Part shown: positions 4,040-35,223 of the stretch, one piece after another
Position numbering within the stretch: position 1 is the stretch's first letter
Layout of the letters: each line of letters opens with the position of its first letter
Source: a phage
DNA length: 64,000 nt
Direction: 5' to 3' (one strand)
Assembly: GCA_033648345.1 (NCBI GenBank)
Contig: GCA_033648345.1_4121.1
Notes under the pieces: model-generated
Told to the model about the DNA's origin: nothing
Databases searched by the model: none
Seen by the model: the letters and a program-made list of their open reading frames with translations, nothing else
Position numbers and translations under genes: made by a program

Positions 4040-4282
4040 ATGAAAGTACTGACAGAACTAGAAATGTATCATAGATTTAATAAGTACTATCATTTACTTA
4101 AGCCTATACAGAGGATTAAATGTCCATTTGAAGAGAAACAGGTTTTAATCTATGAGCACAAGTTCTTTGTATCATTAGGTACAGATCAACAAGAGTACTA
4201 TTTGACGTTGTACTTGATTACATTAATAGATTTCATTCACTATAAAACCACACAATCTAATAAAGAGAAATATGAAAACTAA
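4040..4282 (+). CDS. Family A small protein
   Basis: Track ORF 4007..4282; in-frame ATG at 4040 (MKVLTELEMY) follows upstream stop; SLGTDQQEY. Confidence 0.6.
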   Translation: MKVLTELEMYHRFNKYYHLLKPIQRIKCPFEEKQVLIYEHKFFVSLGTDQQEYYLTLYLITLIDFIHYKTTQSNKEKYEN

Positions 4283-4616
4283 TATACAACTCAAGGTATA
4301 TAAATCCTATGAACATATATATATCAAAAGTAGTCTATGTAGAGATGTAATGGACTACAAGGGTAAGCCATTCACAATTACGTATGATTCTTATATTAAT
4401 GATTTATATATATCATTTGTTAATTACGAAAATAAAATATACAAGCACGTTGATATTAAAGATTTAAGTACTTTATCACCAGAGGAATACTTTCAAGAAT
4501 CATTAGTATGGGATTTAGAATTTCCTATGCCATTAGTACATAAAATGATAGTACTAATGAAAGAAGCTAAACAGGAGCCTAATGGTGATTATGAAGAACA
4601 CATTATTGAGTACTGA
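4272..4616 (+). CDS. Family B protein (EEYFQESLVWD motif) embedded in family A array
   Basis: 114 aa; motif SPEEYFQESLVWD. Confidence 0.65.
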   Translation: MKTNIQLKVYKSYEHIYIKSSLCRDVMDYKGKPFTITYDSYINDLYISFVNYENKIYKHVDIKDLSTLSPEEYFQESLVWDLEFPMPLVHKMIVLMKEAKQEPNGDYEEHIIEY

Positions 4617-4619
4617 ACA

Positions 4620-4835
4620 ATGAAAAGATTATCATACAAAGATTACACCAATCTTATCAGGACTTTACAACCAGAAATTAGAAGAATTAATTCTCTTCCT
4701 ATATCTAATGAAGAATGTTCAGTACTGAAAGATGAGTTAATCTTAAAACACACAGTAGGAACAAACTATCAAGCTGATAGTGTTCGATATTTAATTTGGG
4801 GGTTGATGTGTCAAATAAAGTCCAGACAAGCTTGA
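4620..4835 (+). CDS. Family A small protein
   Basis: 71 aa; TVGTNYQAD. Confidence 0.65.
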   Translation: MKRLSYKDYTNLIRTLQPEIRRINSLPISNEECSVLKDELILKHTVGTNYQADSVRYLIWGLMCQIKSRQA

Positions 4836-4890
4836 CAGTACTCTTCATTACTGCTATAGTACACTAACGTTAATCATTAGGGTAAAAATT

Positions 4891-5136
4891 ATGTTAAATT
4901 TTTTAAATTTCCTTATCGTCTTGTGTATTGTTCTTGGGATTGCACCATTTGTATTGTATTTCATGGATTCAGATGAAATGCAGAAGATGAATTGCACAAA
5001 GACAGGACAGAGTAGAGTAGAGACGATTCTTATGCCTGTTACCGTTATTGTTAATAATATGCCCATTACAAACATGGTCCCTACCCTAACGACAACGTAC
5101 CAGTACTCTTGTACAGACGGAGAGAGGTGGAGATAA
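4891..5136 (+). CDS. Small membrane protein
   Basis: 81 aa; hydrophobic N-terminal helix LNFLIVLCIVLGIAPFVLYF; TAATG overlap with next gene. Confidence 0.5.
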   Translation: MLNFLNFLIVLCIVLGIAPFVLYFMDSDEMQKMNCTKTGQSRVETILMPVTVIVNNMPITNMVPTLTTTYQYSCTDGERWR

Positions 5137-5459
5137 TGCGTAAGTTCAATTGTATTGTACGTAAGAATTCATGTTACATTGTAGTAGCTGATTTTAATAC
5201 AGGTTCTGGGTTGAAGATATTTGAGTACAGAAAATGCAATAATTCTTTTCATTGGAAATTGGGTGCAAGAAAAGCAAAAACAATTTCAGTACCGAATTTA
5301 TGTTCTATCTCTGAAGAAGAAGAGTTTCAGTACTTGTTAGTACATGATGATTCTTTAGGATTTACATTCGAAGATATGAAGGAAGTACAAAAGCAGATGA
5401 TTGCACATTGTCATCTTCCAAAGAATTTTGTTCAACGCGTATGTGAATTCTACATATAA
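5136..5459 (+). CDS. Family B protein
   Basis: Track ORF 5109..5459; ATG at 5136 after RBS GAGAGGTGGAG; motif SEEEEFQYLLVHDD. Confidence 0.65.
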   Translation: MRKFNCIVRKNSCYIVVADFNTGSGLKIFEYRKCNNSFHWKLGARKAKTISVPNLCSISEEEEFQYLLVHDDSLGFTFEDMKEVQKQMIAHCHLPKNFVQRVCEFYI

Positions 5460-5468
5460 GAGAAGAAT

Positions 5469-5780
5469 ATGAAATTTAATATAGCAAAAACATCGAGTAT
5501 ATGTATTTTTGGTTATGCAGAAGAGTTAGGTGATATTGACATTCTTTTGTACAAAAAGGATGGTGTTATGCATTTCAAGTACCAGGATGAAGAGGCAGAC
5601 AATTATCTTTTACCTAATTTAGTACACATGCAGGAAGAGGAATTATTCCAGTACAGCCTTGTGTACGACATTGATATTTGCACGATGCCAGTATTAATTA
5701 GTATTCAAAAAGTGATGCTCGATATGTATGATAAGCTAATACAAGGTATGTCAGGGAGGATCATTGAAATTGATATATAA
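5469..5780 (+). CDS. Family B protein
   Basis: 103 aa; QEEELFQYSLVYDID. Confidence 0.65.
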   Translation: MKFNIAKTSSICIFGYAEELGDIDILLYKKDGVMHFKYQDEEADNYLLPNLVHMQEEELFQYSLVYDIDICTMPVLISIQKVMLDMYDKLIQGMSGRIIEIDI

Positions 5781-5808
5781 GAATTTACCTAAAGGAGATG
5801 CAATATAA

Positions 5809-6060
5809 ATGTACAAAAAAATAAACCGTTATTTGTATGCATCAAAGTACAGGGATTTTTGTTTACAAGGGGGAGATGACGATTTTGCTCTGAGGTTATC
5901 GGAATTTAATATGTTATTTTATCTTGGTACATCAGTACAAGAAGAAATGGTACAGAAATTTCTCAATCACCTTGGACGAAAAATTAATATACAAATTTTG
6001 ATGCTTAAGTTACAGAATGAGATAAATGAATATGAATCCAGAAATAGTTCAGGATCTTAA
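5809..6060 (+). CDS. Family A-like small protein
   Basis: 83 aa; YLGTSVQEE motif. Confidence 0.55.
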   Translation: MYKKINRYLYASKYRDFCLQGGDDDFALRLSEFNMLFYLGTSVQEEMVQKFLNHLGRKINIQILMLKLQNEINEYESRNSSGS

Positions 6061-6769: not shown

Positions 6770-7330
6770 ATGAATGATATTGAGTTATTGGTACATAAGA
6801 TTTGCACAATATCGTTTGTGCTGAACAATTCGAATACAGTACAGAGTTCCCTTTTAAGAATTAATAAAGTTGGGAGTAGTTTATATTTGGAAGTAAAAGC
6901 TGGTTTTGCAGGACAGTACAATGATAAAATCAAAGAAGAAGTTAAGGGAAGTGAAGATGCTTACATTGAGGTTTGTGCAACAGTTGGTTCAAATCCAATT
7001 TCAGTATCACCGTTAATGCGAAATGAAAATTCAGAATTTGATTCCAGTTTTGAAGGTTATTTGTGGTACAATTATGGTGATGATTATTTTATATATCAAA
7101 ATTCCAAAACGGATTATAGTGAAGAAGGTATAAAATTCATTGATCCTTACAATGAAGCAGAAGTATTTCAGACATCCCTAATATACAATACAAATCAAAT
7201 GAAGTATCTTATGTTGTTTAGTACAATGCATTTGAATCCATTGAAAGATAATTTAAAATTTTTCATTCGTTTAGAATTAGTTGATATTGCTTATGATCTT
7301 TTAATGCAAGGATATAGTTATGAAGTATAA
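6770..7330 (+). CDS. Family B protein
   Basis: 186 aa; NEAEVFQTSLIYNTN. Confidence 0.6.
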   Translation: MNDIELLVHKICTISFVLNNSNTVQSSLLRINKVGSSLYLEVKAGFAGQYNDKIKEEVKGSEDAYIEVCATVGSNPISVSPLMRNENSEFDSSFEGYLWYNYGDDYFIYQNSKTDYSEEGIKFIDPYNEAEVFQTSLIYNTNQMKYLMLFSTMHLNPLKDNLKFFIRLELVDIAYDLLMQGYSYEV

Positions 7331-7631
7331 AATGCTGTATACATTAACATTAATATATGTAGAATTAGAATCCGATTCAGATGCATGGAATTTGGTTAAA
7401 GAGGTCGATACCAATCAATGGTACATGGCAAATTTAGACGAACATGTTGTTACGGATTATTTTATAGATTTTAATACATTATCTGAAGAAGAATTTTTCC
7501 AAATGCAATTGGTGGTTGACATGTACGGACATGACATGGTAACATTAAGAAATATACAGAAAGTAGTTAATGAATTCCAAAGCAAGAAAGATTATGAGGT
7601 AGGAGCGTATTATGACATCGACGTACAGTGA
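7320..7631 (+). CDS. Family B protein
   Basis: 103 aa; SEEEFFQMQLVVD; close paralog of next gene. Confidence 0.65.
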   Translation: MKYKMLYTLTLIYVELESDSDAWNLVKEVDTNQWYMANLDEHVVTDYFIDFNTLSEEEFFQMQLVVDMYGHDMVTLRNIQKVVNEFQSKKDYEVGAYYDIDVQ

Positions 7632-7978
7632 AAGCAATGAGTACAATAGTTATGATATATAAAATGCTTTATACAGTATCGGGGATATATGTAGAATTAG
7701 AACCCGATTATCCAGATGGATGGAATTTTATTAAACGCTCCGAAAGAAATACATGGCACATGGCACATTTGGATAATGACGTAATATTAGACAATTTTGT
7801 GGATTTTAATACATTATCAGAAGAAGAATTCTTCCAAATGCAATGTGTGCTTGACACAAAAGGATTTGATGTGCTATTATTAAAGAATATACAAAAAGCT
7901 GTTAACGAATTAATATCCAATGACGAGTTAGGCAAAGTGAGGCTGTTCCATGATCTCGAAGTACCGTACCAGCAATGA
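7628..7978 (+). CDS. Family B protein
   Basis: 116 aa; SEEEFFQMQCVLD. Confidence 0.65.
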   Translation: MKAMSTIVMIYKMLYTVSGIYVELEPDYPDGWNFIKRSERNTWHMAHLDNDVILDNFVDFNTLSEEEFFQMQCVLDTKGFDVLLLKNIQKAVNELISNDELGKVRLFHDLEVPYQQ

Positions 7979-8519
7979 AATTCAGTACACCTACGCTAAT
8001 GCCATTCTTATGGGACAAAAGTTAGCTTGTATTGTTGCAGCCTTATATAATGTACAGAAAGCAGCACATAATAAAAAACCATATACAAGAATCATTAACG
8101 CATTCATGGGGTTTAAACCATCTGATTTTGATTCACATATTGCGTGCACAAGTTATTTTGACAAACGATTCAATACACCTGATACCCCAAATGCCCGTAG
8201 TGTTATTAGTCTTTTACAGTTTAATCCAACACCAGTTATATCAAAGAATGATTTGGATTACACATGGTACAATTCAAATCAAGATTCATTTTATTCTAAT
8301 GATCAATCGATTGAATATAATAAAATTAAATCAGAGGAAGCATTTTTTCAGGAATCATTATTTACACATGAACGTTCTTTGTTTTATAGTGTTATGTTGA
8401 GTACAGTATACAATAGTCCATTACACAAGAATAACAAAATTAATTTCAGTTTTTGTGCTTATGCGATTGATGGTGTTTATGAGTGCTTAATGGAGGTATT
8501 GAGTTATGAAGCTGAATAA
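7950..8519 (+). CDS. Family B protein
   Basis: 189 aa; SEEAFFQESLFTHE; RBS GTGAGG upstream of ATG. Confidence 0.6.
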   Translation: MISKYRTSNEIQYTYANAILMGQKLACIVAALYNVQKAAHNKKPYTRIINAFMGFKPSDFDSHIACTSYFDKRFNTPDTPNARSVISLLQFNPTPVISKNDLDYTWYNSNQDSFYSNDQSIEYNKIKSEEAFFQESLFTHERSLFYSVMLSTVYNSPLHKNNKINFSFCAYAIDGVYECLMEVLSYEAE

Positions 8520-8847
8520 TACATTTGATATTAAGAAGTTAAGAGAATGGTTTTATAGTATTGAAATTGAAGCCATTCCTTATCATACATATGAACAAAG
8601 TGATTTACAAAGTATTGATATCAGAGAGTTGTACAAATATTATCAGAGTGCATTAGAGATGCATAAGTTATTTTTGAGTACAAATTTCATTCTAAATTAC
8701 AATTTTGAGGAATTTAATAATTATAATTTAGTACAGAAATATGTAGTAGCAAAGTACATGTACAATCAAGGTATCAAAGGTTGCCTCGAATTCAATACCG
8801 TTCTTATTTTAGTTGAGGTAATTTTATGCACCGCATGTCTGATTTAG
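8506..8847 (+). CDS. Hypothetical protein
   Basis: 113 aa track ORF in tiling. Confidence 0.5.
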   Translation: MKLNNTFDIKKLREWFYSIEIEAIPYHTYEQSDLQSIDIRELYKYYQSALEMHKLFLSTNFILNYNFEEFNNYNLVQKYVVAKYMYNQGIKGCLEFNTVLILVEVILCTACLI

Positions 8848-9323
8848 AGTTCAGTTTAGATGCAGCCTTTAAATTTGTTCACAAAATAGAAACAATATAT
8901 CGTACATTATGTGCAATAACATCAGTATCAAAAGAGTTTGATGTTGGTGAAAGGTATCAGGTGTGGAATAATTCATTTTATAATAAAGAACATTCTGCGA
9001 CGGCATTTTATATTTTAGCATTTAATCCCAGCAATTGTTACCCTGAGAAGCATGAACGTTATCCAAATGACGACATGTGGTTTGAGTACAAAGAAGATGC
9101 TGATATGTCGTCAATTGTAGTTCCTGATGATTTTAATGCACAAGATTTAACAGAAGAGTGGTGGTTCCAGCAGAATTTAGTACATGATGATATTGATTTA
9201 TTTTTCTATATTGCATTTAAAATGCTTTATCACAACAATATAGTTAAAGAAAGTTTATCGTTTTCATGTCTATATATTGATGATTTGTACAATGAAATTC
9301 AAATAAACATGCCTGTATCGTAA
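8826..9323 (+). CDS. Family B protein
   Basis: 165 aa; TEEWWFQQNLVHDD. Confidence 0.6.
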   Translation: MHRMSDLEFSLDAAFKFVHKIETIYRTLCAITSVSKEFDVGERYQVWNNSFYNKEHSATAFYILAFNPSNCYPEKHERYPNDDMWFEYKEDADMSSIVVPDDFNAQDLTEEWWFQQNLVHDDIDLFFYIAFKMLYHNNIVKESLSFSCLYIDDLYNEIQINMPVS

Positions 9324-9341
9324 GATATGGGCTTTTTTTGT

Positions 9342-9370
9342 TTGACACGAGTACAAATGCATGGTACAAT
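9342..9370 (+). promoter_or_regulatory. Sigma70-like promoter TTGACA-N17-TACAAT
   Basis: Perfect -35 hexamer and near-consensus -10 in the intergenic gap; lies upstream of RBS TAAGGAG and the ATG at 9397. Confidence 0.55.
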
Positions 9371-9396
9371 GTGTAATCATTTTTAAGGAGATACCT

Positions 9397-9972
9397 ATGG
9401 AAAATTTTAAAATACCAGATGATTTCAATTCAGTACAAGAGATTGTACACAAGGTTCATTATATTTTTAATGAATTAATTATTGCCAATTCATCCGGTAT
9501 GCAAATTGAGTTAAAGGATATTGATAGAGAAGAAGTTTTTTTGGGTTCCCCAAATTCAATCATTCCTTTTTATGGACAAGATCGTTTATGGTTCATGAGA
9601 GATACCCCAATTGACAAATACAAAATACAAACAAAATCAGAGTTTTATTCTATTTTTGAATATCTTAATATTACATTACAAACACAAGATATAAATGCAA
9701 TGAGTGCCATGAGTGCAGAGGATTATTTTCAGTACAGTACAGTGTATAGTCCAGAAGAAATCTTTGTTGTTATGCTCGTTGCAAAATTGAGTACAGTTGA
9801 TTTTGGGACGTACCCAAATAAATCATTCAAGATTATTATTCCTGCATTCGTCGATCTTTATGATTTCATTGTGCACAAGAAAGAAAGTACAGTGTACGAT
9901 ATGTATCGTTCAAATATCAGTTTATTTGCATCAAGTGCAGTAAATGCAGTGATTACAGGGGAATTAAAATGA
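9397..9972 (+). CDS. Family B protein
   Basis: Track ORF 9361..9972 starts inside the promoter spacer; in-frame ATG at 9397 with RBS TAAGGAG; motif SAEDYFQYSTVYSPEE. Confidence 0.6.
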   Translation: MENFKIPDDFNSVQEIVHKVHYIFNELIIANSSGMQIELKDIDREEVFLGSPNSIIPFYGQDRLWFMRDTPIDKYKIQTKSEFYSIFEYLNITLQTQDINAMSAMSAEDYFQYSTVYSPEEIFVVMLVAKLSTVDFGTYPNKSFKIIIPAFVDLYDFIVHKKESTVYDMYRSNISLFASSAVNAVITGELK

Positions 9973-10577
9973 ACATAGACCAATTAATGAAGTACAGTAC
10001 AAATACAATTCCAGTGCTAAGTAAAGCATTAGATGCATTCAATGCTAAGTACCCTGAAGGTTCAGAGTTAAATATTCCTTTTACCACAGAAGGAATTGTT
10101 GATACGTACATTGTAAACATCAGTAGTACAGGTATTGTTTTGAAGCAAAAGTACGGCGAAAGTGAATATTATGGATTGAAGCTGGATAATATTTCAGGAG
10201 AGAAGACACCTTATGAGTTTTGGGTTCCGAATAACATTGAGTCATGGAAAACAAATATTAATAAGAGAGACGAAAGAAATTTACCTCTTGTACAAAATAA
10301 TGAAAAAAGAATTGACGTATTTTATTATTACAGTACAGCCCAGTTTCCAGAAGAGATTTATTTAAATTCAGAGGTGCATGAAGATATTGAATCATTTTTC
10401 TTTCAGTTATCATTGGTACAGGATATCATGCCTGTGCAAATGTTCAGGGATGAAATAAATTTAGCGAAAGAGATTTCGGATATGTTACCTGAATTTAGTG
10501 TTCTTTATGGTAGTAGAGCTTTACCTGAAAATGTATACAAAGAATTTATTTCCATTGTTAAAGGGTTGAATATATAA
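9969..10577 (+). CDS. Family B protein
   Basis: 202 aa; ESFFFQLSLVQD. Confidence 0.6.
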   Translation: MNIDQLMKYSTNTIPVLSKALDAFNAKYPEGSELNIPFTTEGIVDTYIVNISSTGIVLKQKYGESEYYGLKLDNISGEKTPYEFWVPNNIESWKTNINKRDERNLPLVQNNEKRIDVFYYYSTAQFPEEIYLNSEVHEDIESFFFQLSLVQDIMPVQMFRDEINLAKEISDMLPEFSVLYGSRALPENVYKEFISIVKGLNI

Positions 10578-10578
10578 T

Positions 10579-10773
10579 ATGACCGCCTATGATATCAAAC
10601 AAAGGCATACGAAGTTTGATTTGTTCACATACCAATTCCACAATGATATAGTGAATTTTAACATCAATGCGTCATTGCATCCTACATCACAAGATGATTT
10701 TGACAACAGAGTGCTTAACATCGTGGTGCTTTTGTGTTATAATCATTTCAGTGAATATTTTAACACAAGATAA
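10579..10773 (+). CDS. Hypothetical protein
   Basis: 64 aa track ORF. Confidence 0.45.
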   Translation: MTAYDIKQRHTKFDLFTYQFHNDIVNFNINASLHPTSQDDFDNRVLNIVVLLCYNHFSEYFNTR

Positions 10774-10786
10774 GGTTGAGGCACAC

Positions 10787-11305
10787 ATGTATCAGGCCAA
10801 GTACAATACATCATATGCATTTGCACACAACATTTTGAAGATCATCAAAGCGTTAGAGGGTGGATTGCTTAGTCATAAGTACACCAAAGTAGGTGACAAT
10901 TGGTTCAGAAATGATGATGAGTTCAGAAGTCATAAGATTGTTTACAGCAATAATTACAGTGCCAATTACCTTCAGGATGTTGCTATGTGCTTCGAATACG
11001 TGTTACAGTTCAGGGGTTCCATCAGTCCAGAGCTAAGAGAACACATGTACATTCGATACCTACCAATGCTTAAGGATGAGAAAACAATATTCAATTCAGT
11101 ACACCACAGAGTACGAGAGAGAACATTCAGGGATATTTTAGAAGATGAAGCTGCATATTTCCAGCAATCATTGATTGATGCTCCTGATGTGTTACAGATG
11201 CAGAATTTGTATAATGTATTAGATGCGAACATCGATACGGATATCTTTTTTTCCTTAAGTGATTATGAAACATTTTTGGAAGATTTAAAGGAAATAGGAT
11301 TATGA
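10787..11305 (+). CDS. Family B protein
   Basis: Track ORF 10667..11305; in-frame ATG at 10787 after RBS AAGGTTGAGG; EDEAAYFQQSLIDAPD. Confidence 0.6.
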   Translation: MYQAKYNTSYAFAHNILKIIKALEGGLLSHKYTKVGDNWFRNDDEFRSHKIVYSNNYSANYLQDVAMCFEYVLQFRGSISPELREHMYIRYLPMLKDEKTIFNSVHHRVRERTFRDILEDEAAYFQQSLIDAPDVLQMQNLYNVLDANIDTDIFFSLSDYETFLEDLKEIGL

Positions 11306-11646
11306 GTAGATTTTCAGTTTATATAGTAAACGTCAGTAAAGATGGTAGTTTAATTGAATTTGATGTAGTTGATGACAATGATAATTCATATTGTATTAAG
11401 GTACAGGACAATGATGTACAGTTCAGTACAAGGACAAATTTTGAAAATCCAGTCCAAGTTCCGAATTTCATAGAAGATGAAGCTGCACGATTCCAATACG
11501 AAACGGCCTTTGATAATTTAGCGATGCATATTATTATGCAACAGAGTTTAGTTCAATTGCTTCAGGTATTCAGACAAAATATATATGTACACGAAGTGTC
11601 GATTAATGGCATTCAAAGTTCCGTTTTGTTCAGTACAAATATGTAA
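11302..11646 (+). CDS. Family B protein
   Basis: 114 aa; EDEAARFQYETAFD. Confidence 0.6.
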   Translation: MSRFSVYIVNVSKDGSLIEFDVVDDNDNSYCIKVQDNDVQFSTRTNFENPVQVPNFIEDEAARFQYETAFDNLAMHIIMQQSLVQLLQVFRQNIYVHEVSINGIQSSVLFSTNM

Positions 11647-11656
11647 GGAAAGTACA

Positions 11657-12211
11657 ATGAGTTCAATGAGTTTATTAGATACATTAGAAAAAGACAGAAG
11701 TGCCATTAAGAGATTAAAAAATCTTGTCCAGAGCATTGCGAACAACGCTGAGAAGTTCAGTGACAATCTTAGTATAGGTGATATAACCAGTACAGGAATA
11801 AAATCCCTGAAGTCAGATTTATTAATTCATAAGGAAGATAAATTATTATTTGTATTGAGTTCAGATTTAATGGTTGCAAGTAATGGTTTCAATTCGATAT
11901 CAACACAAGATGGTAGCACAGGATTATATCTATCACAGGGTGTCCAGACGAACGAACAAAAGTGTTTTAGTTCAGGAGTACAGAATCCCTTTAAGTTCAG
12001 TACAGAACAAGCTACAGAGCTTTTAGATGCTTCAGAAGAGATGTTATTTCAGTACAAAACGGTTCATACAGATTTTGAATTACGATGCATGTACGCTGTT
12101 AAGCATTATGTTCAGGAGTTCGAGAATTTAAGTTATCTTTTAGTTCGAACGAATACAAAGAACATTGGTGCATTAGAAGATTACATTTCAAAAGTTGTTA
12201 AAGGGTGCTAA
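11657..12211 (+). CDS. Family B protein
   Basis: Track ORF 11585..12211; in-frame ATG at 11657 (MSSMSLLD); SEEMLFQYKTVHTD. Confidence 0.6.
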   Translation: MSSMSLLDTLEKDRSAIKRLKNLVQSIANNAEKFSDNLSIGDITSTGIKSLKSDLLIHKEDKLLFVLSSDLMVASNGFNSISTQDGSTGLYLSQGVQTNEQKCFSSGVQNPFKFSTEQATELLDASEEMLFQYKTVHTDFELRCMYAVKHYVQEFENLSYLLVRTNTKNIGALEDYISKVVKGC

Positions 12212-12789: not shown

Positions 12790-12986
12790 AGACGTTTCGT
12801 TTTCACAGGCCGCAGGGGGGGGTCAAAAAAAATTTTCGCTGAAAAACATGTTAAGGTATATGTTTAATATAAAGTTTTAAAATGTGTTCACAGAGTACAG
12901 TTCATGTTTCCTGAAACAAAAAATACCCCGCCGCGAACGTTCTCCTTATATTGGAGTTTACCTTATTAATTACAGTTGAGATTAAG

Positions 12987-13364
12987 ATGGAAATAAAATA
13001 TAATGATTTTTGTGCAAGGACATGGATGTACACTGGTGAGTTAGTTACGCACTCTAACTTATACAAGGGTGATTTAAACTACGCAAGGGACAAGATTTTA
13101 AAGTACTGGAATTCTGACTTTTATTTGATGGATTTTAGTACTGGGTTTAGGGGTAAAGCAACCGAGATGTTGGACTATACAGTACTTGATGATGCGGCAC
13201 TGTTTCAGGAGGCATTAGTATTTGATAAGAAGTACATCTGTACATTAGAAGAGATGATTGAAATCCAGCGTAGAATTAAATGTATTCACAGAGAATGTAT
13301 AGACATCTGGTGCAGTACTGGTGAGGCTGATTTCTGGAAATTTTTTAATCTAGGGGAAGAGTGA
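12987..13364 (+). CDS. Family B protein (DKKY subfamily)
   Basis: Track ORF 12951 begins with TTG; in-frame ATG at 12987; motif DDAALFQEALVFDKKYICTLEE. Confidence 0.6.
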   Translation: MEIKYNDFCARTWMYTGELVTHSNLYKGDLNYARDKILKYWNSDFYLMDFSTGFRGKATEMLDYTVLDDAALFQEALVFDKKYICTLEEMIEIQRRIKCIHRECIDIWCSTGEADFWKFFNLGEE

Positions 13365-26175: not shown

Positions 26176-26603
26176 TGACAAGAGATGAATGCTTATACAT
26201 ATGGGATATAATTGAAACTACACTTTCAAATCCAGAAAATTATAAAACAAAAAAAAGACAACGACACAAAATATGGATAGATTTGTTCGTTGAGGGCATA
26301 CACGCAGTGACTATTTGGGATTCACCGAGGGCATCATCATCTACTCTGTTGGACAATGAATGCATTGATTGCATTAATTCCACTTTTCATCTCCACGGTA
26401 CTACATATTTCGGCACATTTCTGGATATTGAAAGTAAAGATGATATTGATTCACTTGCTTTACAATACGGAGTACTGTATGATACTAAATTAATTTACGA
26501 TTTAGTACTAGCTTCTTATGTGTATAAATTAATGATGAAATATAATCATATTTCAGTTTCAGTTTATACTAAGGATATTCTTTCATTAAGAGACAAAACA
26601 TGA
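26175..26603 (+). CDS. Hypothetical protein (degenerate family B motif)
   Basis: 142 aa; SLALQYGVLYD. Confidence 0.5.
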   Translation: MTRDECLYIWDIIETTLSNPENYKTKKRQRHKIWIDLFVEGIHAVTIWDSPRASSSTLLDNECIDCINSTFHLHGTTYFGTFLDIESKDDIDSLALQYGVLYDTKLIYDLVLASYVYKLMMKYNHISVSVYTKDILSLRDKT

Positions 26604-27106
26604 GTTTATTAAATGCACGAGAATTAGTTGAGATGTATGAGATCTTATCTTCATATAAAAATTCTCCAAAAGATGTAATTCTCAACAAAAAGTTCCATGT
26701 CAATGTTGATCATATGAAAAATATAGATATGATTTCTTTAGTGGAAAGTCGTAAATCGGGTCTTGAGCGTGATATCATGCGTTTGATTTATATTACCAAA
26801 CCATCATATACTAATGATAGTTCAATTAGTAATGAGACGTTTTTGTACACTCCTTATACTGATTGTACTTTAGTTTCAATGTCTAATCAGAAACAAGATA
26901 CTATCCAATTCATCAATACCAGTACTGATAACATTGAAGAAAATGAATTCCAAAACAATACATTAAGTTCATGTAGTAGTGTTATAACCTTTATGTCATA
27001 TCTGTGGTCAATCAAATCAAATGCAATTGTATATAGTTCTAATTACACACAAGATAGTATTGTTGAATCATTTAAAGTTCTAAAGGAATACTATGAAAAT
27101 AACTAA
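26600..27106 (+). CDS. Family B protein (divergent)
   Basis: 168 aa; IEENEFQNNTLSS. Confidence 0.55.
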   Translation: MSLLNARELVEMYEILSSYKNSPKDVILNKKFHVNVDHMKNIDMISLVESRKSGLERDIMRLIYITKPSYTNDSSISNETFLYTPYTDCTLVSMSNQKQDTIQFINTSTDNIEENEFQNNTLSSCSSVITFMSYLWSIKSNAIVYSSNYTQDSIVESFKVLKEYYENN

Positions 27107-27674
27107 TGATTTTATTAGAAGCTTAGTGCACCCTATGCTTGGTGTTATGAAAAAACTACAGACTCTACCTGAAGACAACGATTACAAGTTTAATCGTTTT
27201 GATTCGGATGTGTTTTGTATTGAAATGGAAATTAATAACAATCGTTATTTTCATTTAAAATTCAAAGAATCGTCGAGTTCGCACTACAACTTTGACATGA
27301 ATTTTAAAATAAGCAATGATATTGAAGAAAACGCAATATCAAATCATATTAGCAGAAATGGTTTCATGCATAGAACTAATATGTTCAATAATAAAAACAG
27401 TATTATATCTAAATGGAATCATCAATTCACTAAAATTTGTGATATTGATTGCAGTACATTTGGTGAAGAACAATACTTTCAGTTAAGTACAATACATGAA
27501 CTTCCACCATATGATTGTGTAAAAACATGGTTTGATATTCATAATATAATTGATGATGCAATCGTACTTCCATTTGGGTTGTCAATATCATATACTGCAC
27601 CTAAAACGTTTGTTTTTACTGAAGATATGATTATGAAAAAGATATGGGCGATGATCCCACTTATGCTTGATTAA
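27093..27674 (+). CDS. Family B protein
   Basis: 193 aa; GEEQYFQLSTIHELP. Confidence 0.6.
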   Translation: MKITNDFIRSLVHPMLGVMKKLQTLPEDNDYKFNRFDSDVFCIEMEINNNRYFHLKFKESSSSHYNFDMNFKISNDIEENAISNHISRNGFMHRTNMFNNKNSIISKWNHQFTKICDIDCSTFGEEQYFQLSTIHELPPYDCVKTWFDIHNIIDDAIVLPFGLSISYTAPKTFVFTEDMIMKKIWAMIPLMLD

Positions 27675-27685: not shown

Positions 27686-28237
27686 ATGAATCAAAGTCAT
27701 GATCTTTTTAAATTATGTGCATCCAAAGATGTGGAAGGATGGGCAGATAAAATCAATACAATTATTAACCGTTATCTTGGCTTCTGTGCACGATCACGAA
27801 GTGAAGGTTCAATGCGTTTCCAAATAACCATGACAATCGATGGTGTTACGATTTATGTCAACGAAGAACGTCTTGGTATTAATCTCTATGATAGTTGTGT
27901 CTTTGCTATTCACCAGAAAATGGGGGCAGGTTGGGGTTGTAATAATATGAACACCAATGCATTTTTCTGGGTAGGTCATAGCAACACAGTACTTGATCCT
28001 TCAAAGAAATCAAACCTTTTAGATGATAATTTGGTATATGATTTAGCTTACTCTGAAGAACAACATTTCCAGTTAAGTACATTGCATAATTTAGTCAAAT
28101 ATGAAGATTGTATCAAAGCATTAGAATTATGCCATTCACTTGAACTTAAAGAAAAATTGATACAAATTTACCCATTGTTCTTCCATGAAGAAGTACAATG
28201 CACACTAGATCATATTTTATATGGGTACGACAAATGA
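27686..28237 (+). CDS. Family B protein
   Basis: 183 aa; SEEQHFQLSTLHNL. Confidence 0.6.
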   Translation: MNQSHDLFKLCASKDVEGWADKINTIINRYLGFCARSRSEGSMRFQITMTIDGVTIYVNEERLGINLYDSCVFAIHQKMGAGWGCNNMNTNAFFWVGHSNTVLDPSKKSNLLDDNLVYDLAYSEEQHFQLSTLHNLVKYEDCIKALELCHSLELKEKLIQIYPLFFHEEVQCTLDHILYGYDK

Positions 28238-28836
28238 GAAAAAGTTATCAAGAAGCTATTGACCTAATTCGAGAAGTTATTAAGGCGGCTCCAGGTGCGA
28301 TAGCATTCAAGAAGTCCCTATATAAAAAGTATGGTCCCATGTCAAGTATGTGCTGTCAAAAGAAACGTAGTAAATTTACTACGCAGTACTGGCATGATTC
28401 TATTATCCTGAGTAATGAACATCAGCGTATTTTAACAATCGAATCAGTAGATAATCAATATGGTGAAGGAATGATTTGTGTTCCTGACTATGATGAAATT
28501 AATTTCAATTGTGGAGATTATGAGACAACATTATTATTACACGAGGGTTACCCTGAAGGTGATGTAATGGCAGAGTATAATCCAAAAACCAAAATACTGA
28601 AACGTGGTATGCAGTTCAAAATCAATAACAAAGATGATGTGGAAGCAGCACTAATGCAACTTAGTACTAGTGAACCTATCACTATTGATGTAGAAGAGTT
28701 ATGGGGCATCATTTCAGTACTTAATGAGTGTTATAAAATTAAATCATTACATAAGTACTCTATCATTTTACATACTAATTGTGCAATGATAAAATGCAAG
28801 AACATACAAGAGATGGTGGTTCCAGATGAACTTTAA
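28234..28836 (+). CDS. Hypothetical protein (degenerate family B motif)
   Basis: Track ORF 28198..28836; in-frame ATG at 28234 gives ATGA overlap; EAALMQLSTSEP. Confidence 0.5.
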   Translation: MRKSYQEAIDLIREVIKAAPGAIAFKKSLYKKYGPMSSMCCQKKRSKFTTQYWHDSIILSNEHQRILTIESVDNQYGEGMICVPDYDEINFNCGDYETTLLLHEGYPEGDVMAEYNPKTKILKRGMQFKINNKDDVEAALMQLSTSEPITIDVEELWGIISVLNECYKIKSLHKYSIILHTNCAMIKCKNIQEMVVPDEL

Positions 28837-29410
28837 AGAAATAGAAAGTAAAATTAAGTACTTCAAAGATATTAAAAAACTTTGGGAAAAGTATAAAATT
28901 GATTATCAGTTCCAAGATGATGATACTGTTCAAAGCATTGATATTAATATTCGTGTGAAGTTTAAGAATGGCAATTATGGCGAAGTTAAATTGAATGCTA
29001 TTGGTGTATTCCTTAAGGATTATGATGGTTCTTCACTCGCTCAATTCGATTTCACACCTGATCCTGATGATATGTTATTGAGTGAAGTCAATGCATATGA
29101 CCTTGAGATGTTTAATGGTAAACCTTTACTATTCCGCTTATCAGATGAATGGGATGAGGTTTACTACACATACAAAGATGGTGTGATTCGAGACGTAAAT
29201 GATGAAGTAGTAAATGATATGGAAGAACGTCTATTTCAAGAATCATGTGTGTCATCGGAGTCATATACATATCAATATCTACTTGACATGTTCGATTTGT
29301 ATAGTAAAATAGATTCAGAAATGAGTACATTGGGTATTCATTATCTTACAATCAACGACTTTGCACAACTTGAAACAGCGGTTAAAGCACTGGTCAAAGT
29401 ACTGAAATAG
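28826..29410 (+). CDS. Family B protein
   Basis: 194 aa; MEERLFQESCVSSES. Confidence 0.55.
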   Translation: MNFKEIESKIKYFKDIKKLWEKYKIDYQFQDDDTVQSIDINIRVKFKNGNYGEVKLNAIGVFLKDYDGSSLAQFDFTPDPDDMLLSEVNAYDLEMFNGKPLLFRLSDEWDEVYYTYKDGVIRDVNDEVVNDMEERLFQESCVSSESYTYQYLLDMFDLYSKIDSEMSTLGIHYLTINDFAQLETAVKALVKVLK

Positions 29411-29419: not shown

Positions 29420-29833
29420 ATGAAACTGTATCATGCGAGTACTGTAAAAATTGATAACTTTTATATCCCGTATGGTGGCCTTCATATGGGAGGTAAACAC
29501 AGTGCTTTAGAAGCTGCATTACGCAAACTGAGAAGCCCACTAAACGTCGTTGACGCTGATACAGTATACTTGCATACCTTAGAAGTTGATGTTGATAACG
29601 TGCTTCTATGGACGGATATGGGCAGTGATGATGAATGGCGTGGAGTGATTGAGTACTGCGAAATTAACGGCTATGATGCAGTTCAGTACCAAAACGATTA
29701 CGAACCAGATACAGTTCCTAGCTATATGATTTGGGATACGTCTAAGGTTCGCATTATTGAAGTTGATGCGATGCATATGGATGAAGCTGAAATGATCATC
29801 GAAGATTTCCTTGATGAATATGAAGGTGTATAA
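29420..29833 (+). CDS. Hypothetical protein
   Basis: 137 aa track ORF; acidic C-terminus. Confidence 0.55.
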   Translation: MKLYHASTVKIDNFYIPYGGLHMGGKHSALEAALRKLRSPLNVVDADTVYLHTLEVDVDNVLLWTDMGSDDEWRGVIEYCEINGYDAVQYQNDYEPDTVPSYMIWDTSKVRIIEVDAMHMDEAEMIIEDFLDEYEGV

Positions 29834-30351
29834 TGATTGAACCTATGACAGTACTAGCACGTACTAAATTATTATTGAAGATTGGTGAGATATTCACTGA
29901 TATTTTGTACAGTGGGATTGATATACATGAATTAGGCATTAAGCAACCGTGGGAAATAACCAAGTTCTCTGCGTTCTATCGTTTATCATATAAAGGGGAA
30001 ACGGTTCTGGACTGGAACCCCAAAGCCAAATTCATGGAATATGCGGCGTTATATGGAAGCAATGGTGGTATAACAAATAATTTTAAAGAAATTAAAGTCC
30101 TAATTGGGTCAAAGGAATTTAATGATCTACTATATCCAGAATTTAAGTTAACAGAAGAATTAATATTTCAGTACTCTTTGATTTTAAAAGATCTTAATGA
30201 TTTAGAGTACTACAAAGAGTTAGTAGATATTTTTATTAATACTCGACTTTCAAAAGATATTGTGATATTCTGGTATGTTGAGTATGTTACAGAGGAATTG
30301 CTTGAAGAATTTCTTCTAAATATGACAGCAATCAAGGAGAAGTTATGTTAG
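29833..30351 (+). CDS. Family B protein
   Basis: 172 aa; TEELIFQYSLILKD. Confidence 0.6.
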   Translation: MIEPMTVLARTKLLLKIGEIFTDILYSGIDIHELGIKQPWEITKFSAFYRLSYKGETVLDWNPKAKFMEYAALYGSNGGITNNFKEIKVLIGSKEFNDLLYPEFKLTEELIFQYSLILKDLNDLEYYKELVDIFINTRLSKDIVIFWYVEYVTEELLEEFLLNMTAIKEKLC

Positions 30352-30818
30352 ACATTTTAGGAAACATCGATACAGCAAATTATTTTATTCAAGATGCACT
30401 GTTCAATACAGTACAGAAAGGGTTGGATGTACGATGTAATATCCATCAGGGAGATGGGTATTTTGTTGATATCACAGAAACACGCAAGAACGTGTTCAAT
30501 TTAAACATTACCACATTAGCACGTCAGAACATTGCACGCATTCTGGTTAATAAAGATGAAATAGTTCTTCGTTATAATTCCAAATTCTTATTCACATACA
30601 AGAAGAAGACTGACATGTTCAGTACTAATTTGTTTGATGAACCCTTCAATCTGGAAGACTTAGAAGCAACTTTCTTTACACAGAACACTATGCTGAAATT
30701 CAATGATGTTGAATTTTCATCAGAAGTAATGTCTGAAACACTACAAATGGTTAAGGTAGTATTCTATGCTTTTCAACAGTTTAACGAAGAACGAAACAAG
30801 GTTAACAACAACAGATGA
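30345..30818 (+). CDS. Family B protein (divergent)
   Basis: 157 aa; LEATFFTQNTMLKF. Confidence 0.5.
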   Translation: MLDILGNIDTANYFIQDALFNTVQKGLDVRCNIHQGDGYFVDITETRKNVFNLNITTLARQNIARILVNKDEIVLRYNSKFLFTYKKKTDMFSTNLFDEPFNLEDLEATFFTQNTMLKFNDVEFSSEVMSETLQMVKVVFYAFQQFNEERNKVNNNR

Positions 30819-31179
30819 ACTAATCGCGGCGATGGGAGCCAATGAGAAATACTTCAATGGGATTCATTTTTTTAAAACAGATCTTAGTGAAAGTAAAGTA
30901 CTATATGTGTATGGTTCCCAGTACTGCATTGTCACAAAGCACCCAGATTCGATTTCACTAAAATTTAACACTTATTCAAAAAACTTCTTGACGATTAATA
31001 AAAGCAATGTTACTATGTCTGGTATAGGGAATCAGGTTGTTGAGATTCCTTTGGACTCAATTGATTCTATTGAGTTCTTTCAATACGAGTGCTTAGGTGT
31101 TGATTTTGGTACTGTCAGTACTGAATCTATGCGAACATTAATTAATTTACTTAAAGGTAAAGTTCATGCTTTTAACTAA
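30766..31179 (+). CDS. Family B protein (divergent)
   Basis: 137 aa; SIEFFQYECLGVD; start uncertain (53 nt overlap with upstream gene; alternative ATG at 30832). Confidence 0.5.
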   Translation: MLFNSLTKNETRLTTTDELIAAMGANEKYFNGIHFFKTDLSESKVLYVYGSQYCIVTKHPDSISLKFNTYSKNFLTINKSNVTMSGIGNQVVEIPLDSIDSIEFFQYECLGVDFGTVSTESMRTLINLLKGKVHAFN

Positions 31180-31666
31180 TTCGATGAAGAATTCATTTAA
31201 AATTATCAAAGAAATACTAAATGGGTCTAAAACTTCTAGTGGGTCTTCCTTTACTAGTGACCAGATCCAACACAGTACAAAGGATTGTACTGTAATCTTT
31301 GGGTTACATAGTCTGCGTTTGACAATAGTAAATAATATTGATAACACAGCAATTGTAATCACCCCATGTCATATTCAGAATGAAACAGGTGCATACTTAC
31401 ACCACATGGGGACTGTATTCTACATCTTCAATACTGAAGAAAACATTGTTAAAGAATACAACACACTCAATGTTGATGCAGGTGAGTTATTCCAATTGAG
31501 TACTGTCAATGATTGTAACTTCAGTGACAATGCAGAAGTACTTCCATTGTTTCTAAGTCTTCTCAATAACATGGAAAAACTAACCATTGCATACAACAAA
31601 AGTGACGTACCGCAAGCAGTATTGAATATCACCGAAGCAATGGAGAAATACAAAGCTGTGACCTAA
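31166..31666 (+). CDS. Family B protein
   Basis: 166 aa; DAGELFQLSTVNDC. Confidence 0.55.
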   Translation: MLLTNSMKNSFKIIKEILNGSKTSSGSSFTSDQIQHSTKDCTVIFGLHSLRLTIVNNIDNTAIVITPCHIQNETGAYLHHMGTVFYIFNTEENIVKEYNTLNVDAGELFQLSTVNDCNFSDNAEVLPLFLSLLNNMEKLTIAYNKSDVPQAVLNITEAMEKYKAVT

Positions 31667-33508: not shown

Positions 33509-33518
33509 TAAAATATTG

Positions 33519-33546
33519 TGGACATGACAATTCCTTGTGATATAAT
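33519..33546 (+). promoter_or_regulatory. Sigma70-like promoter TGGACA-N16-TGaTATAAT (extended -10)
   Basis: Intergenic; GTGATATAAT box shared with other promoters in window. Confidence 0.5.
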
Positions 33547-33579
33547 GTTCACATCTTTTTTTGATAAATGGAGATATAG

Positions 33580-33966
33580 ATGAATACAAGTTCTGTTCTA
33601 AAAGCTATTGGTGGTGTACTTCTGATTGAAGTCCAGGGTGAACCTAAGCTATGTTGCTTAGAAGACATGAAGAATACTAAACACTTCAGTACTGGACAGA
33701 TTTTCAATGCTATTCGTGTTCTTAACGACAAATCAGTACAAGACTATGGAAAGGTATGGCCTTCGTATGTAAATCCTGAAGGTGAAATTAGTGCTGATTG
33801 GAAAACAATTGAAGCAGTACGTGTGAGTTGTGAGAGCGATTGGGATTTCATCGTTGAAGTATGTGACCAACTGCAAGAAGATGTGCCAGAGATTGTCGAA
33901 CGTAAAGAAGTTCTAGCACAACTTGATAAATTCCGTCACGGTACTCTACCGTATGACGTAATCTAA
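33580..33966 (+). CDS. Hypothetical protein
   Basis: 128 aa track ORF, RBS AAATGGAGAT. Confidence 0.55.
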   Translation: MNTSSVLKAIGGVLLIEVQGEPKLCCLEDMKNTKHFSTGQIFNAIRVLNDKSVQDYGKVWPSYVNPEGEISADWKTIEAVRVSCESDWDFIVEVCDQLQEDVPEIVERKEVLAQLDKFRHGTLPYDVI

Positions 33967-34017
33967 TCTGATTTATTAAAAACTATCTAACTAACATTAT
34001 ATAAAAAGGAATTTAAA

Positions 34018-34323
34018 ATGGAAGACAACGGAATGAAATTTGATATGTTTGAAGGTGTACCAGAGTTCGATTTCAATAAACTTGAAAATGGTGAAGAATC
34101 AGAACTAGTAAGTGTTACACTAAAATCAGATACCAAAAAGAAATATTCCCCATCAGTTCGTGCTCGTTCTCAAGAAGAATATGAAACCTTCATTGAGAGT
34201 ATTCATTACGAAACGTTCCATCATGCAGATGGTACTCCGTATGAAGTTCGTGTTACAGTACTGAAGCCTGAAGTAAACCCAATGGAAAATCTACGTCCTG
34301 TTTACTGCTGGGCAAGCCACTAA
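34018..34323 (+). CDS. Hypothetical protein
   Basis: 101 aa track ORF, RBS AAAGGAAT. Confidence 0.55.
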   Translation: MEDNGMKFDMFEGVPEFDFNKLENGEESELVSVTLKSDTKKKYSPSVRARSQEEYETFIESIHYETFHHADGTPYEVRVTVLKPEVNPMENLRPVYCWASH

Positions 34324-34332
34324 TAAACCAAA

Positions 34333-34362
34333 GGACGGGATATAATATCTCGTCTTTTTTTT
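34333..34362 (+). terminator. Rho-independent terminator
   Basis: GACGGGA-TATAATA-TCTCGTC hairpin (one G.U pair) followed by T8. Confidence 0.6.
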
Positions 34363-34374
34363 GTCTGGAGATAT

Positions 34375-35223
34375 ATGAAACTTTATCTAATCGTTGACTA
34401 CAGTAAGGGTTATTATGACTACGCAGAAGAATCTGAAGGGTATTGCTCGTCTACTAATGTCAATGTACGCACCAGTAATACACATGAGCATGAATCTATT
34501 ACAAACCTAAAAGATTTCATCGCATATCGAGCATTTGAAAAGAATTTCTGTCGTAGTAGATATTCGAAATTTGAGTACCCGTTAATTGATGTTCCTGATG
34601 AATTGATGTTCCAGTTAATGCTCACTGGAGTACAAGATTATGATTACATCGCGTACAATCACATTACTAAGAAAATTTATATCGGTACGTCAACACATGA
34701 CATTTCTATGTATGCATCATGCCCCGATGATCGAATGAATGATAGAAAATCATACTATAGTGGATCAGTTGGTTCAAATGATTCATTAAATGAAAATTTA
34801 TTCTTTGAGTACGAGTTTGATAATCATCGAGGGAATAAAGACCGAGAAGATTATTGTACTAAAATTGATAGTTCAAATGGATATGAAGAAGTGAAAGAAG
34901 CGATAATGCCATATATCCTTGACAAGTACTACAAAGATTTTCAGTACTGTAGTAATTTTCTAATCCGAAATTCTATCATAATCGGTCGTCAAAGTACTGC
35001 ATTCTCTAAGTACTACAATGATTCCCCTGTTGCTGAAAATGAAAACTGTAATATTCTCTCAATTCCACGTGAAGATATGGTATTCATGTTCACATCTTTC
35101 ATTGAAGATGATGAGTTGTATGTAAAAAACAAGCACAGGTTCATGCCAAGTAAGATTGAGGTTATGAGAAGCTTAAGTGCAGATATCTTAACTAATTTCA
35201 CTGAAAAAACAGAATACAACTGA
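34375..35223 (+). CDS. Hypothetical protein (weak family B motif)
   Basis: 282 aa; PDELMFQLMLTGVQD. Confidence 0.55.
   Translation: MKLYLIVDYSKGYYDYAEESEGYCSSTNVNVRTSNTHEHESITNLKDFIAYRAFEKNFCRSRYSKFEYPLIDVPDELMFQLMLTGVQDYDYIAYNHITKKIYIGTSTHDISMYASCPDDRMNDRKSYYSGSVGSNDSLNENLFFEYEFDNHRGNKDREDYCTKIDSSNGYEEVKEAIMPYILDKYYKDFQYCSNFLIRNSIIIGRQSTAFSKYYNDSPVAENENCNILSIPREDMVFMFTSFIEDDELYVKNKHRFMPSKIEVMRSLSADILTNFTEKTEYN

Follow-up and report, generated by a model that had tools for sequence, protein, structure and literature searches.

An old, clade-restricted tandem array of FQ-family genes in a RaK2-like jumbo coliphage

We analyzed 64,000 nucleotides of phage DNA (NCBI GenBank assembly GCA_033648345.1, contig GCA_033648345.1_4121.1), a stretch referred to below as the window, which carries a long tandem array of small paralogous genes that we call the FQ family. 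A first-pass annotation had counted about 48 such genes between 4272 and 35223, with an outlier at 42749, all recognizable by a short acidic-aromatic motif. An iterated profile hidden Markov model (HMM) finds 43 members: 42 lie between 4272 and 31666, and the forty-third, at 42749-43438, is that same isolated outlier. The best reversed or shuffled control sequence reached E=0.008, against E<1e-7 for members. A strict form of the motif, [ED][EDA]x[FYLIMW][FY]Qx[SNQ][LTC][VILF], occurs in 23 of the 148 plus-strand open reading frames (ORFs) and in a mean of 0.000 ORFs over 200 residue shuffles, while a looser pattern marks 44 of 193 plus-frame ORFs versus 4 of 180 minus-frame ORFs. By these controls the family exists far beyond chance at the place first described, and neither residue composition nor low complexity accounts for the motif.

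In leave-one-out scoring, 39 members pass at E<1e-3 and 41 at E<0.01, and 26600-27106 and 30766-31179 are marginal. Profile-profile comparison with hhalign adds two probable degenerate members, 9969-10577 (58% probability) and 25026-25610 (29%), and two possible ones, 28198-28836 and 24463-25026, so that on sequence criteria the family would number 45-47 at most, 43 of them solid, and the initial count was a mild overestimate. The array ends at ~31666 rather than 35223, because the 282-aa ORFs at 32350-33198 and 34375-35223 find no support in the hhalign comparison and were rejected as members. Two further marginal HMM matches (43395-43703 and 47923-48228), which appeared in late iterations only and have an hhalign probability of at most 1.2%, were dropped. 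By size, 29 members are long forms of 137-229 aa and 14 are short forms of 103-137 aa.

Megablast of window positions 13000-21000 returned full-length matches at 96-98% identity to the jumbo coliphages Turkey3, vB_Ec-M-J, WPEC3, fEgEco12 and others, and at 84% and 86% identity to 121Q and PBECO4, respectively; Turkey3 is 97.9% identical to the window. The window therefore derives from an Asteriusvirus (the 121Q/PBECO4 group), a RaK2-like myovirus with a genome of ~350 kb. Every long ORF is on the plus strand, the G+C content is 30-36%, and no tRNA genes were found in the window.

No annotated family covers these proteins. With 10 members, searches of Pfam-A and NCBIfam gave nothing at the curated cut-off and nothing with E<0.01; with 29 members, NCBIfam gave no match at the curated cut-off and Pfam no credible match, one member having a sub-threshold hit to PIMT_C (E 0.0087). 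In PHROGs the members are split over many families (9317, 12674, 15629, 28549, 34516 and others), all of unknown function and none with a functional category, and a PDB sequence-profile search returned no match. Foldseek against BFVD matched solely uncharacterised proteins of 121Q, SP27, RaK2, Serratia phage BF, Yersinia phage fHe-Yen9-04, Cronobacter phage GAP32 and Erwinia phage pEa_SNUABM_47. Searched exhaustively with HMMER, 1.84 billion cluster representatives yielded only 145 clusters, all of single-domain proteins of 65-230 aa with no fusions, 100 of which carry the strict pattern acidic-x-x-hydrophobic-[FYM]-Q. In Klebsiella phage RaK2, at least 32 members form a syntenic array that lies upstream of the dam and cytidyltransferase genes. 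As judged by these searches, the FQ family is a hallmark of the RaK2-like clade, to which it appears confined and in which it always forms a tandem array.

Relatives also surface in metagenomes. On one contig of 31% G+C (L005; ENA ERZ27237414 k141_159981, 1-8040), 15 of 16 genes are family members; blastn against 50,697 phage records found no match for it, and it would therefore come from an uncultured relative of RaK2-like phages. The distant representative P0079 has no tblastn match in phages either, so some relatives would exist in metagenomes only. Tblastn of the HMM consensus against phages also returned no match, probably owing to the low-complexity filter and the short query, and a word-indexed protein search with distant representatives returned three proteins only.

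The pair F-Q is the sole invariant pair in both paralog alignments. Each residue is present in 100% of the 43 window members, F in 100% and Q in 97% of the 145 external representatives of 50%-identity clusters, and each in 96% of the 32 RaK2 members. The motif begins with S/T (57% in the window, 75% externally), followed by E (81% and 84%), a second E (67% and 88%), a variable position and a mostly aromatic or hydrophobic one before the pair. After Q come a variable position, S (72% and 91%), L or T, then V, I or L, and mostly Y or H. Only two of the ~10 motif positions thus vary, and their i and i+4 spacing suggests a single exposed stripe on an otherwise packed helix.

Conservation extends well beyond this motif, to which it had been thought confined: the HMM aligns ~130 positions, from an N-terminal helix through a beta region, the motif helix and a further helix to a 'FYLDL' strand, and alignments of paralogs were enough for confident AlphaFold models. 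We modelled one long member (15155-15643) and one short member (13361-13720) from paralog-only alignments. The long-form model (predicted local distance difference test score (pLDDT) 86, predicted template modelling score (pTM) 0.81) runs through helix 3-21, seven strands, a short helix (99-103), the motif helix (109-115, in blocks of pLDDT 97), helix 121-135, strand 141-144, helix 146-152 and a final short helix. The short-form model (pLDDT 87.7, pTM 0.83) has five strands, the motif helix (66-75), helix 84-100 and one strand. The motif lies in the best-predicted segment of both (pLDDT ~96-97) and forms a helix, neither a loop nor a linker. The models give good support to one compact alpha/beta domain predicted for all members. 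In this predicted fold, a meander of 5-7 beta-strands leads into the motif helix, which is followed by another helix and a last strand; the long forms, as modelled, add an N-terminal and a C-terminal helix. Equally well supported by the predicted structures is the assignment of [ST]-E-E-x-aromatic-F-Q-x-S-[LT]-[VIL] to the central helix and the turn that follows, which would make it an unchangeable part of the scaffold rather than a free linear motif or a cleavage site.

Most sequence variation lies in the beta region before the motif. Members are mostly acidic, with a median isoelectric point (pI) of 4.8 and a net charge of -8, versus 5.9 and -2 for the other ORFs of the window; their pI ranges from 4.05 to 8.9, 58% lie below pI 5, and the net charge descends to -28 in 15155-15643. 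The order of elements (helix, antiparallel beta-meander, helices) and the acidity are reminiscent of p32/MAM33. We rejected membership of that family, which is defined by the MAM33 Pfam domain and a helix, seven-stranded sheet and helices assembled into a trimeric doughnut.

Alignments place the paralogs at 12-46% identity. Adjacent members score a mean of 22.9 bits against each other, versus 8-9 bits at distance, which fits tandem duplication followed by divergence and agrees with the proposal that these are true homologs. Of the 32 RaK2 members, 18 find their best match in the window rather than in RaK2 itself, and gene order agrees between the two phages over the distal third of the array. 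These cross-genus matches, with the syntenic RaK2 array of at least 32 copies, indicate that the expansion is old. Within the genus, the array is collinear with 121Q genes 342-408, and collinear reciprocal orthologs exist for 39 of the 43 members in 121Q and for 42 of 43 in Turkey3. The median ratio of nonsynonymous to synonymous substitution rates (dN/dS) against 121Q is 0.24, with no value above 1, compared with 0.22 for flanking non-family genes. Purifying selection on the members is well supported by these comparisons, and a dN/dS of 0.24 led us to reject non-functional ORFs as an explanation. The orthologs and the dN/dS therefore argue that each paralog is functional and individually maintained, and that the array is not a recent accordion. 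They also run counter to the continuing rapid diversification pictured at first, as does the gene order partly shared with RaK2. Amino-acid divergence between orthologs, per site, is 0.27 before the motif, 0.15 within it and 0.22 after it. Taken together, these data give good support to an old, clade-restricted expansion of a scaffold of unrecognised fold.

Recent gain or loss is visible in four members that have no 121Q ortholog: 5109, 7320, 13717 (of the DKKY subgroup) and 16375. The DKKY and WYF subgroups, described in the first-pass annotation as recent duplicates, do contain the most similar members, but these are only 34-46% identical, and most have their own 121Q orthologs, so they are not recent in absolute terms. 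When window positions 12951-14061 were compared with L001 19952-21958 and L003 14222-15948, the DKKY subgroup was found to differ between close phages; by annotated gene sizes, Turkey3 and 121Q each apparently have one extra gene of ~120 aa in this stretch.

The array genes are tightly packed, with overlaps of 1-74 nt, often of the 4-nt ATGA type. All 14 sigma-70-type promoter matches of at least 11/12 between 1 and 40 kb are on the coding (plus) strand. Those at 4832, 20529, 24407 and 33519 lie in intergenic gaps 28-34 nt 5' of a start codon, two of them directly after terminator-like hairpins, and their hexamers are kept in 121Q while the spacers have changed. Terminator-like hairpins are enriched between 20 and 40 kb (16 found versus 6.4 +/- 2.5 expected). 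The genome of fEgEco12 is linear, with a direct terminal repeat of 20,993 bp (PMC13070987). Window position 13000 aligns by megablast with fEgEco12 position 37234, which would put the start of the window, ~24.2 kb in from the left physical end, just inside the repeat. By this mapping the array sits at or beside the terminal redundancy, as expected of an early-takeover region.

Known early host-takeover modules include the terminal-redundancy module of SPO1 and the early small ORFs of T4. In CBB, a related phage, RpoD-like promoters are concentrated in a region of short ORFs beside the terminal repeat, which its authors suspect to be an early host-takeover region (PMC5259590). The FQ array resembles these modules in its many short one-strand ORFs next to a long terminal repeat, and may resemble them in strong host-sigma promoters, as its consensus matches suggest; it differs in that they consist mostly of unrelated genes, whereas the array repeats one fold more than 40 times. 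The virion proteome of phAPEC6 (62 proteins) has no gp39x-gp48x entries; the family maps to ~gp410c-470c. Early, non-structural expression driven by the host polymerase is moderately supported.

As each paralog is separately kept by purifying selection, we consider an early, non-structural battery of specialised binders or inhibitors built on one scaffold to be the most likely explanation, at a probability of roughly 0.45. Host RNA polymerase would read the genes early from the sigma-70-type promoters, as co-directional overlapping operons just inside the left terminal repeat. The products would be small (~100-210 aa), mostly acidic, cytoplasmic proteins outside the virion, and each paralog would engage a different host takeover or defence target via the common scaffold. 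Here we infer the early timing, the binder function in the cytoplasm and the targets; a host-targeting or anti-defence role is plausible given the sigma-70-type promoters, the proximity of the terminal repeat, the absence from the virion proteome and the small size and mostly acidic nature of the proteins.

Several observations weigh against a battery of specialised binders. The promoter calls are consensus matches, and their total count is not above the shuffled expectation. The gene-wide dN/dS equals the level of neighbouring genes and bears no arms-race signature such as counter-defence genes often show. The measured F-Q invariance is partly circular, because HMM membership favours sequences that retain the motif. 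The burial of F, Q and E-E is suggested by the pattern of conservation and not by coordinates. Finally, an invariant polar Gln and two Glu conserved at ~70-90% go beyond the needs of hydrophobic packing, and could instead mark a shared active or docking site.

This last point leads to the main rival explanation, which we hold to be unlikely. The invariant helix (E-E, F-Q, S) would act as the fixed site, docking or active, that engages one common partner (a host hub or a phage-encoded machine), to which the variable beta region brings different clients. Formally, this logic parallels the expanded adaptor families of large eukaryotic viruses (F-box, BTB and PRANC). It would account for a pair that is invariant over ~220 sequences otherwise 12-30% identical, for the two Glu, as acidic residues are rarely conserved for core packing alone, and for the clear separation of variable and conserved halves along the sequence; as context only, CBB has its own ClpP-like protease subunit (PMC5259590). 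Against a shared docking helix, only the i and i+4 positions vary, a pattern in keeping with a helix that is mostly buried. In both models the motif also falls where packing is predicted with most confidence, and S/T with acidic residues after it is a common way to cap the N-terminus of a helix. Less likely still, in our view, is a bacterial-virus equivalent of the adaptor families that giant eukaryotic viruses have expanded. In that case the E-E...F-Q...S helix would be a docking or catalytic site common to all members, through which more than 40 recognition modules join a single hub of host or phage (for instance a protease, RNA polymerase or the ribosome) and redirect it to many targets, on a fold that has no solved relative.

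The low pI of most members and the extreme charge of 15155-15643 could also suggest acidic mimics of DNA or other nucleic acids, acting as anti-restriction or anti-defence decoys like Ocr, ArdA and Arn, all the more so as the genes are apparently early and lie beside genes for a Dam methyltransferase, an RNA ligase and a polynucleotide kinase. We find this improbable: charge is not a family-wide property, several members being neutral or basic, no structural match to known mimics was found, and it is difficult to see why more than 40 different DNA mimics would be needed.

Internal head proteins of phiKZ-like phages form paralog families. The FQ products might likewise be subunits of one large assembly (an inner body, scaffold or compartment), and the bubblegram pattern of 121Q resembles the phiKZ inner body (PMC5646251). 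The lack of any family product among the phAPEC6 virion proteins, together with promoters and a terminal-repeat position that point to early rather than late expression, makes this very improbable. The tobacco etch virus (TEV) protease site reads E-N-L-Y-F-Q followed by S or G, and protease sites must be extended and accessible. Proteolytic processing after Gln at a 3C/NIa-type site, E-x-x-[YF]-F-Q/x-S, which was considered at first, can be all but set aside, even though EEGYFQGS (16815-17270) and EENYFQQS (19942-20532) are near-perfect TEV-site matches and [ST]EEx[YF]FQxS agrees with such a site in sequence: the motif is helical and lies in the best-predicted part of a single compact domain whose last strand comes after it, and the position that follows Q varies strongly. 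None of these phages is reported to encode a 3C-like protease, with no dedicated whole-genome scan made; the peptidase domains listed for CBB are of the ClpP-like and M23 types only (PMC5259590). Given the predicted fold, the TEV-site resemblance of the two sequences is probably coincidental; TEV protease might nevertheless cut the denatured proteins.

A battery of specialised binders would have parallels elsewhere. The polyimmunity loci described by Zhang, Iyer, Aravind and colleagues are said to be tandem arrays of diversified immunity proteins, such as SUKH, from polymorphic-toxin systems. Like them, the FQ array is a long co-directional run of small, diverged paralogs that use a single alpha+beta scaffold, with each protein presumed to neutralise a partner of its own. 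Unlike them, it matches neither SUKH nor any other Pfam immunity family in sequence or fold, and it occupies the presumed early region of a lytic phage; no toxin-like gene was recognised in the window. In large eukaryotic viruses, the amplified K3L gene of poxviruses and the multigene families (MGF) 360 and 505 of African swine fever virus have been described as multigene families and 'genomic accordions' (reviewed in PMC13359090). These resemble the array in tandem paralog expansion near the genome end of a very large virus, and accordions are generally tied to host range and counter-defence. Accordion amplifications are, however, recent and variable in copy number, whereas the FQ paralogs are strongly diverged, mostly have one-to-one orthologs in the genus and are partly shared with another genus. 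Near-identical, strain-variable copies were not seen, the only copy change being the minor one noted above, and we rejected a recent accordion.

Such arrays had been noticed before. Hua et al. give one sentence to a tandem array in 121Q, which may be either the FQ family or the adjacent array of ~72-aa LGTNYQ genes (PMC5646251), a remark repeated in a 2026 review, and the RaK2 paper of 2013 mentions ~10% paralogues in one sentence (PMC3622015). Both remarks concern the same phage group and the same growth of the genome by tandem duplication as seen here. In the literature on Asteriusvirus and RaK2-like phages we found generic paralog remarks only, and no family definition, motif, fold, expression context or selection analysis. 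The existence of the arrays is therefore known; what is newly described here is the definition of the family, together with its fold, its distribution, its selection regime and the context of its expression.

In every RaK2-like jumbo phage examined, the FQ array takes up ~27 kb, which is ~7-8% of a genome of 350 kb. It ranks among the largest paralog expansions in any phage; it has neither a Pfam entry nor a solved or recognisable fold, and no function has been proposed for it. Being old, individually conserved, probably early and non-structural, its genes are a defined and tractable target rather than an anonymous block of hypothetical proteins. If the members are specialised inhibitors, each phage would offer a natural library of ~40 or more binders of E. 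coli proteins, which would help explain the large genomes of these phages; if the invariant helix is a common docking site, it would point to a new host hub exploited by phages.

Table 1. FQ-family members and putative promoters in the window. E values are from leave-one-out scoring with the family HMM; pLDDT values are from AlphaFold2.
Feature	Motif	Coordinates	Strand	Leave-one-out E	Other evidence
Short form (114 aa)	SPEEYFQESLVWD	4272..4616	+	4.9e-10	HMM
Short form	SEEEEFQYLLVHD	5109..5459	+	4.9e-8	HMM; no reciprocal 121Q ortholog; true start probably near 5136, from Turkey3 coding-sequence length
Short form	QEEELFQYSLVYD	5469..5780	+	1.2e-10	
Long form	NEAEVFQTSLIYN	6770..7330	+	8.7e-9	
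Short form	SEEEFFQMQLVVD	7320..7631	+	2.8e-8	no reciprocal 121Q ortholog
Short form	SEEEFFQMQCVLD	7628..7978	+	4.6e-10	
Long form	SEEAFFQESLFTH	7950..8519	+	7.1e-9	
Long form	TEEWWFQQNLVHD	8826..9323	+	5.1e-11	phrog_34516, unknown function
Long form	SAEDYFQYSTVYS	9361..9972	+	2.5e-9	
Probable degenerate member	IESFFFQLSLVQD	9969..10577	+		missed by HMM; hhalign 58%, E 1e-4, aligned at motif region
Long form	DEAAYFQQSLIDA	10667..11305	+	1.2e-11	true start probably near 10787; Turkey3 coding sequence 519 nt
Short form	DEAARFQYETAFD	11302..11646	+	0.0019	
Long form	SEEMLFQYKTVHT	11585..12211	+	1.4e-9	
Short form, DKKY subgroup	DDAALFQEALVFDKKY	12951..13364	+	1.1e-7	alignment
Short form, DKKY subgroup, modelled		13361..13720	+	2.1e-15	pLDDT 87.7
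Short form, DKKY subgroup	GEAEIFQESLIFDKKY	13717..14061	+	6.4e-13	no reciprocal 121Q ortholog
Long form, WYF subgroup	SEEFYFQQNTIYE	14245..14715	+	6.3e-16	
Long form, WYF subgroup	TEEYYFQQSLIFN	14712..15152	+	3.4e-16	
Long form, WYF subgroup, modelled	SEEYYFQNSTVYN	15155..15643	+	3.1e-22	pLDDT 86
Long form, WYF subgroup	SEEYYFQNSTLYD	15621..16064	+	2.4e-21	
Short form	HETFLFQESLIWD	16061..16375	+	6.1e-8	
Long form	SEYAYFQYSTIYP	16375..16818	+	1.5e-11	no reciprocal 121Q ortholog
Long form	TEEGYFQGSTVYN	16815..17270	+	1.4e-15	
Long form, diverged	SFEEQCFQLSCTD	17257..17793	+	0.0091	121Q ortholog 93.8% identical
Long form	TEENIFQNSLMWD	18109..18705	+	1.7e-10	true start probably near 18151
Short form	QEDELFQESLVWDKKY	19304..19663	+	2e-8	
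Short form	DTGELFQESLVLD	19653..19991	+	1.7e-7	
Long form	NEENYFQQSLLNT	19942..20532	+	3.4e-13	true start probably near 19999
Long form	SEEEFFQYSTLYN	20592..21071	+	1.9e-15	directly 3' of perfect sigma-70-type promoter match
Long form	TEEMYFQESCIHD	21068..21550	+	4.8e-19	
Short form	SEEELFQESTVNT	21543..21905	+	1.9e-11	
Short form	TPDELFQYSLVLP	21889..22302	+	8e-9	
Long form	SEESYFQNSLIYT	22290..22784	+	7.7e-14	
Long form	LESVMFQHMLIHK	23307..23864	+	7e-8	best RaK2 counterpart L002 22102-22710
Long form	TDEVQFQLSTICD	23791..24375	+	5.2e-9	true start probably near 23857
Possible degenerate member without FQ	YDVLLFNANLIHN	24463..25026	+		weak: hhalign 2.1%, E 0.023, aligned at motif region
Probable degenerate member	REGYIFQRSVLDN	25026..25610	+		hhalign 29%, E 6e-4; E 0.005 against enlarged HMM
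Long form	VEEELFQMSTVIP	25597..26175	+	7e-6	121Q ortholog 96% identical
Long form, diverged	IEENEFQNNTLSS	26600..27106	+	0.13	inclusive HMM E 6e-11; collinear RaK2 counterpart L002 25522-26013, itself a family match
Long form	GEEQYFQLSTIHE	27093..27674	+	8.1e-5	
Long form	SEEQHFQLSTLHN	27686..28237	+	9.2e-6	
Possible degenerate member, M in place of F	VEAALMQLSTSEP	28198..28836	+		weak: hhalign 4.6%, E 0.009
Long form	MEERLFQESCVSS	28826..29410	+	2.3e-4	
Long form	TEELIFQYSLILK	29833..30351	+	2.9e-4	
Diverged member	DSIEFFQYECLGV	30766..31179	+	0.1	marginal; inclusive HMM E 4e-9
Long form, last of array	DAGELFQLSTVND	31166..31666	+	8.1e-7	collinear RaK2 L002 30237-30734
Isolated member (229 aa)	SEEEHFQLMMMRA	42749..43438	+	4.2e-6	121Q ortholog 90.8% identical
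Sigma-70-type promoter match (TTGACA, 17-nt spacer, TGn TATAGT), intergenic		4832..4860	+		11/12; both hexamers identical in 121Q
Terminator-like hairpin 9311-9332, then sigma-70-type promoter match 9342-9370		9311..9370	+		consensus scan
Perfect extended sigma-70-type promoter match (TTGACA, 18-nt spacer, TGn TATAAT)		20529..20558	+		12/12; 34 nt 5' of gene 20592; hexamers identical in 121Q, spacer different
Terminator-like hairpin 24374-24393, then sigma-70-type promoter match 24407-24435		24374..24435	+		28 nt 5' of next gene; conserved in 121Q

A second expanded family adjoins the array, with 22 small genes (64-96 aa) that share a conserved 'LGTNYQE' motif. Eighteen of them stand in tandem directly upstream of the FQ array (263-4282), and four are interspersed within it (4620-4835, 5809-6060, 17771-17989 and 17967-18161); in Turkey3 and 121Q the LGTNYQE array extends further upstream. 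This family has no Pfam match and corresponds to PHROG 4148, of unknown function. A relationship between it and the FQ family was rejected at an hhalign probability of 0.1%.

Downstream of the FQ array, the genes at 36467-37521, 43700-44842 and 45665-46597 include a Dam-type N6-adenine methyltransferase (Pfam PF05869, E 4e-33). The same cluster holds a cytidyltransferase-like gene, annotated in Turkey3 as phosphopantetheine adenylyltransferase, and genes that match the 121Q RNA ligase and polynucleotide kinase by position; together they form an RNA-repair and DNA-modification cluster.

Inside the array, positions 29420-29833 encode a non-family protein of 137 aa (MKLYHASTVKIDNFYIPYGGLHMGG...) that has no Pfam match and belongs to phrog_11632, of unknown function; judged by position and length only, its counterparts of equal size and array position are 121Q gene 404 and RaK2 ORF435. 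The two 282-aa ORFs beyond the array, at 32350-33198 and 34375-35223, have no detectable relation to each other. Strong hairpins at 34330-34358 and 35252-35280 flank the second of them, and RaK2 carries ORF441 and ORF445, of similar size, at the same positions as the two.

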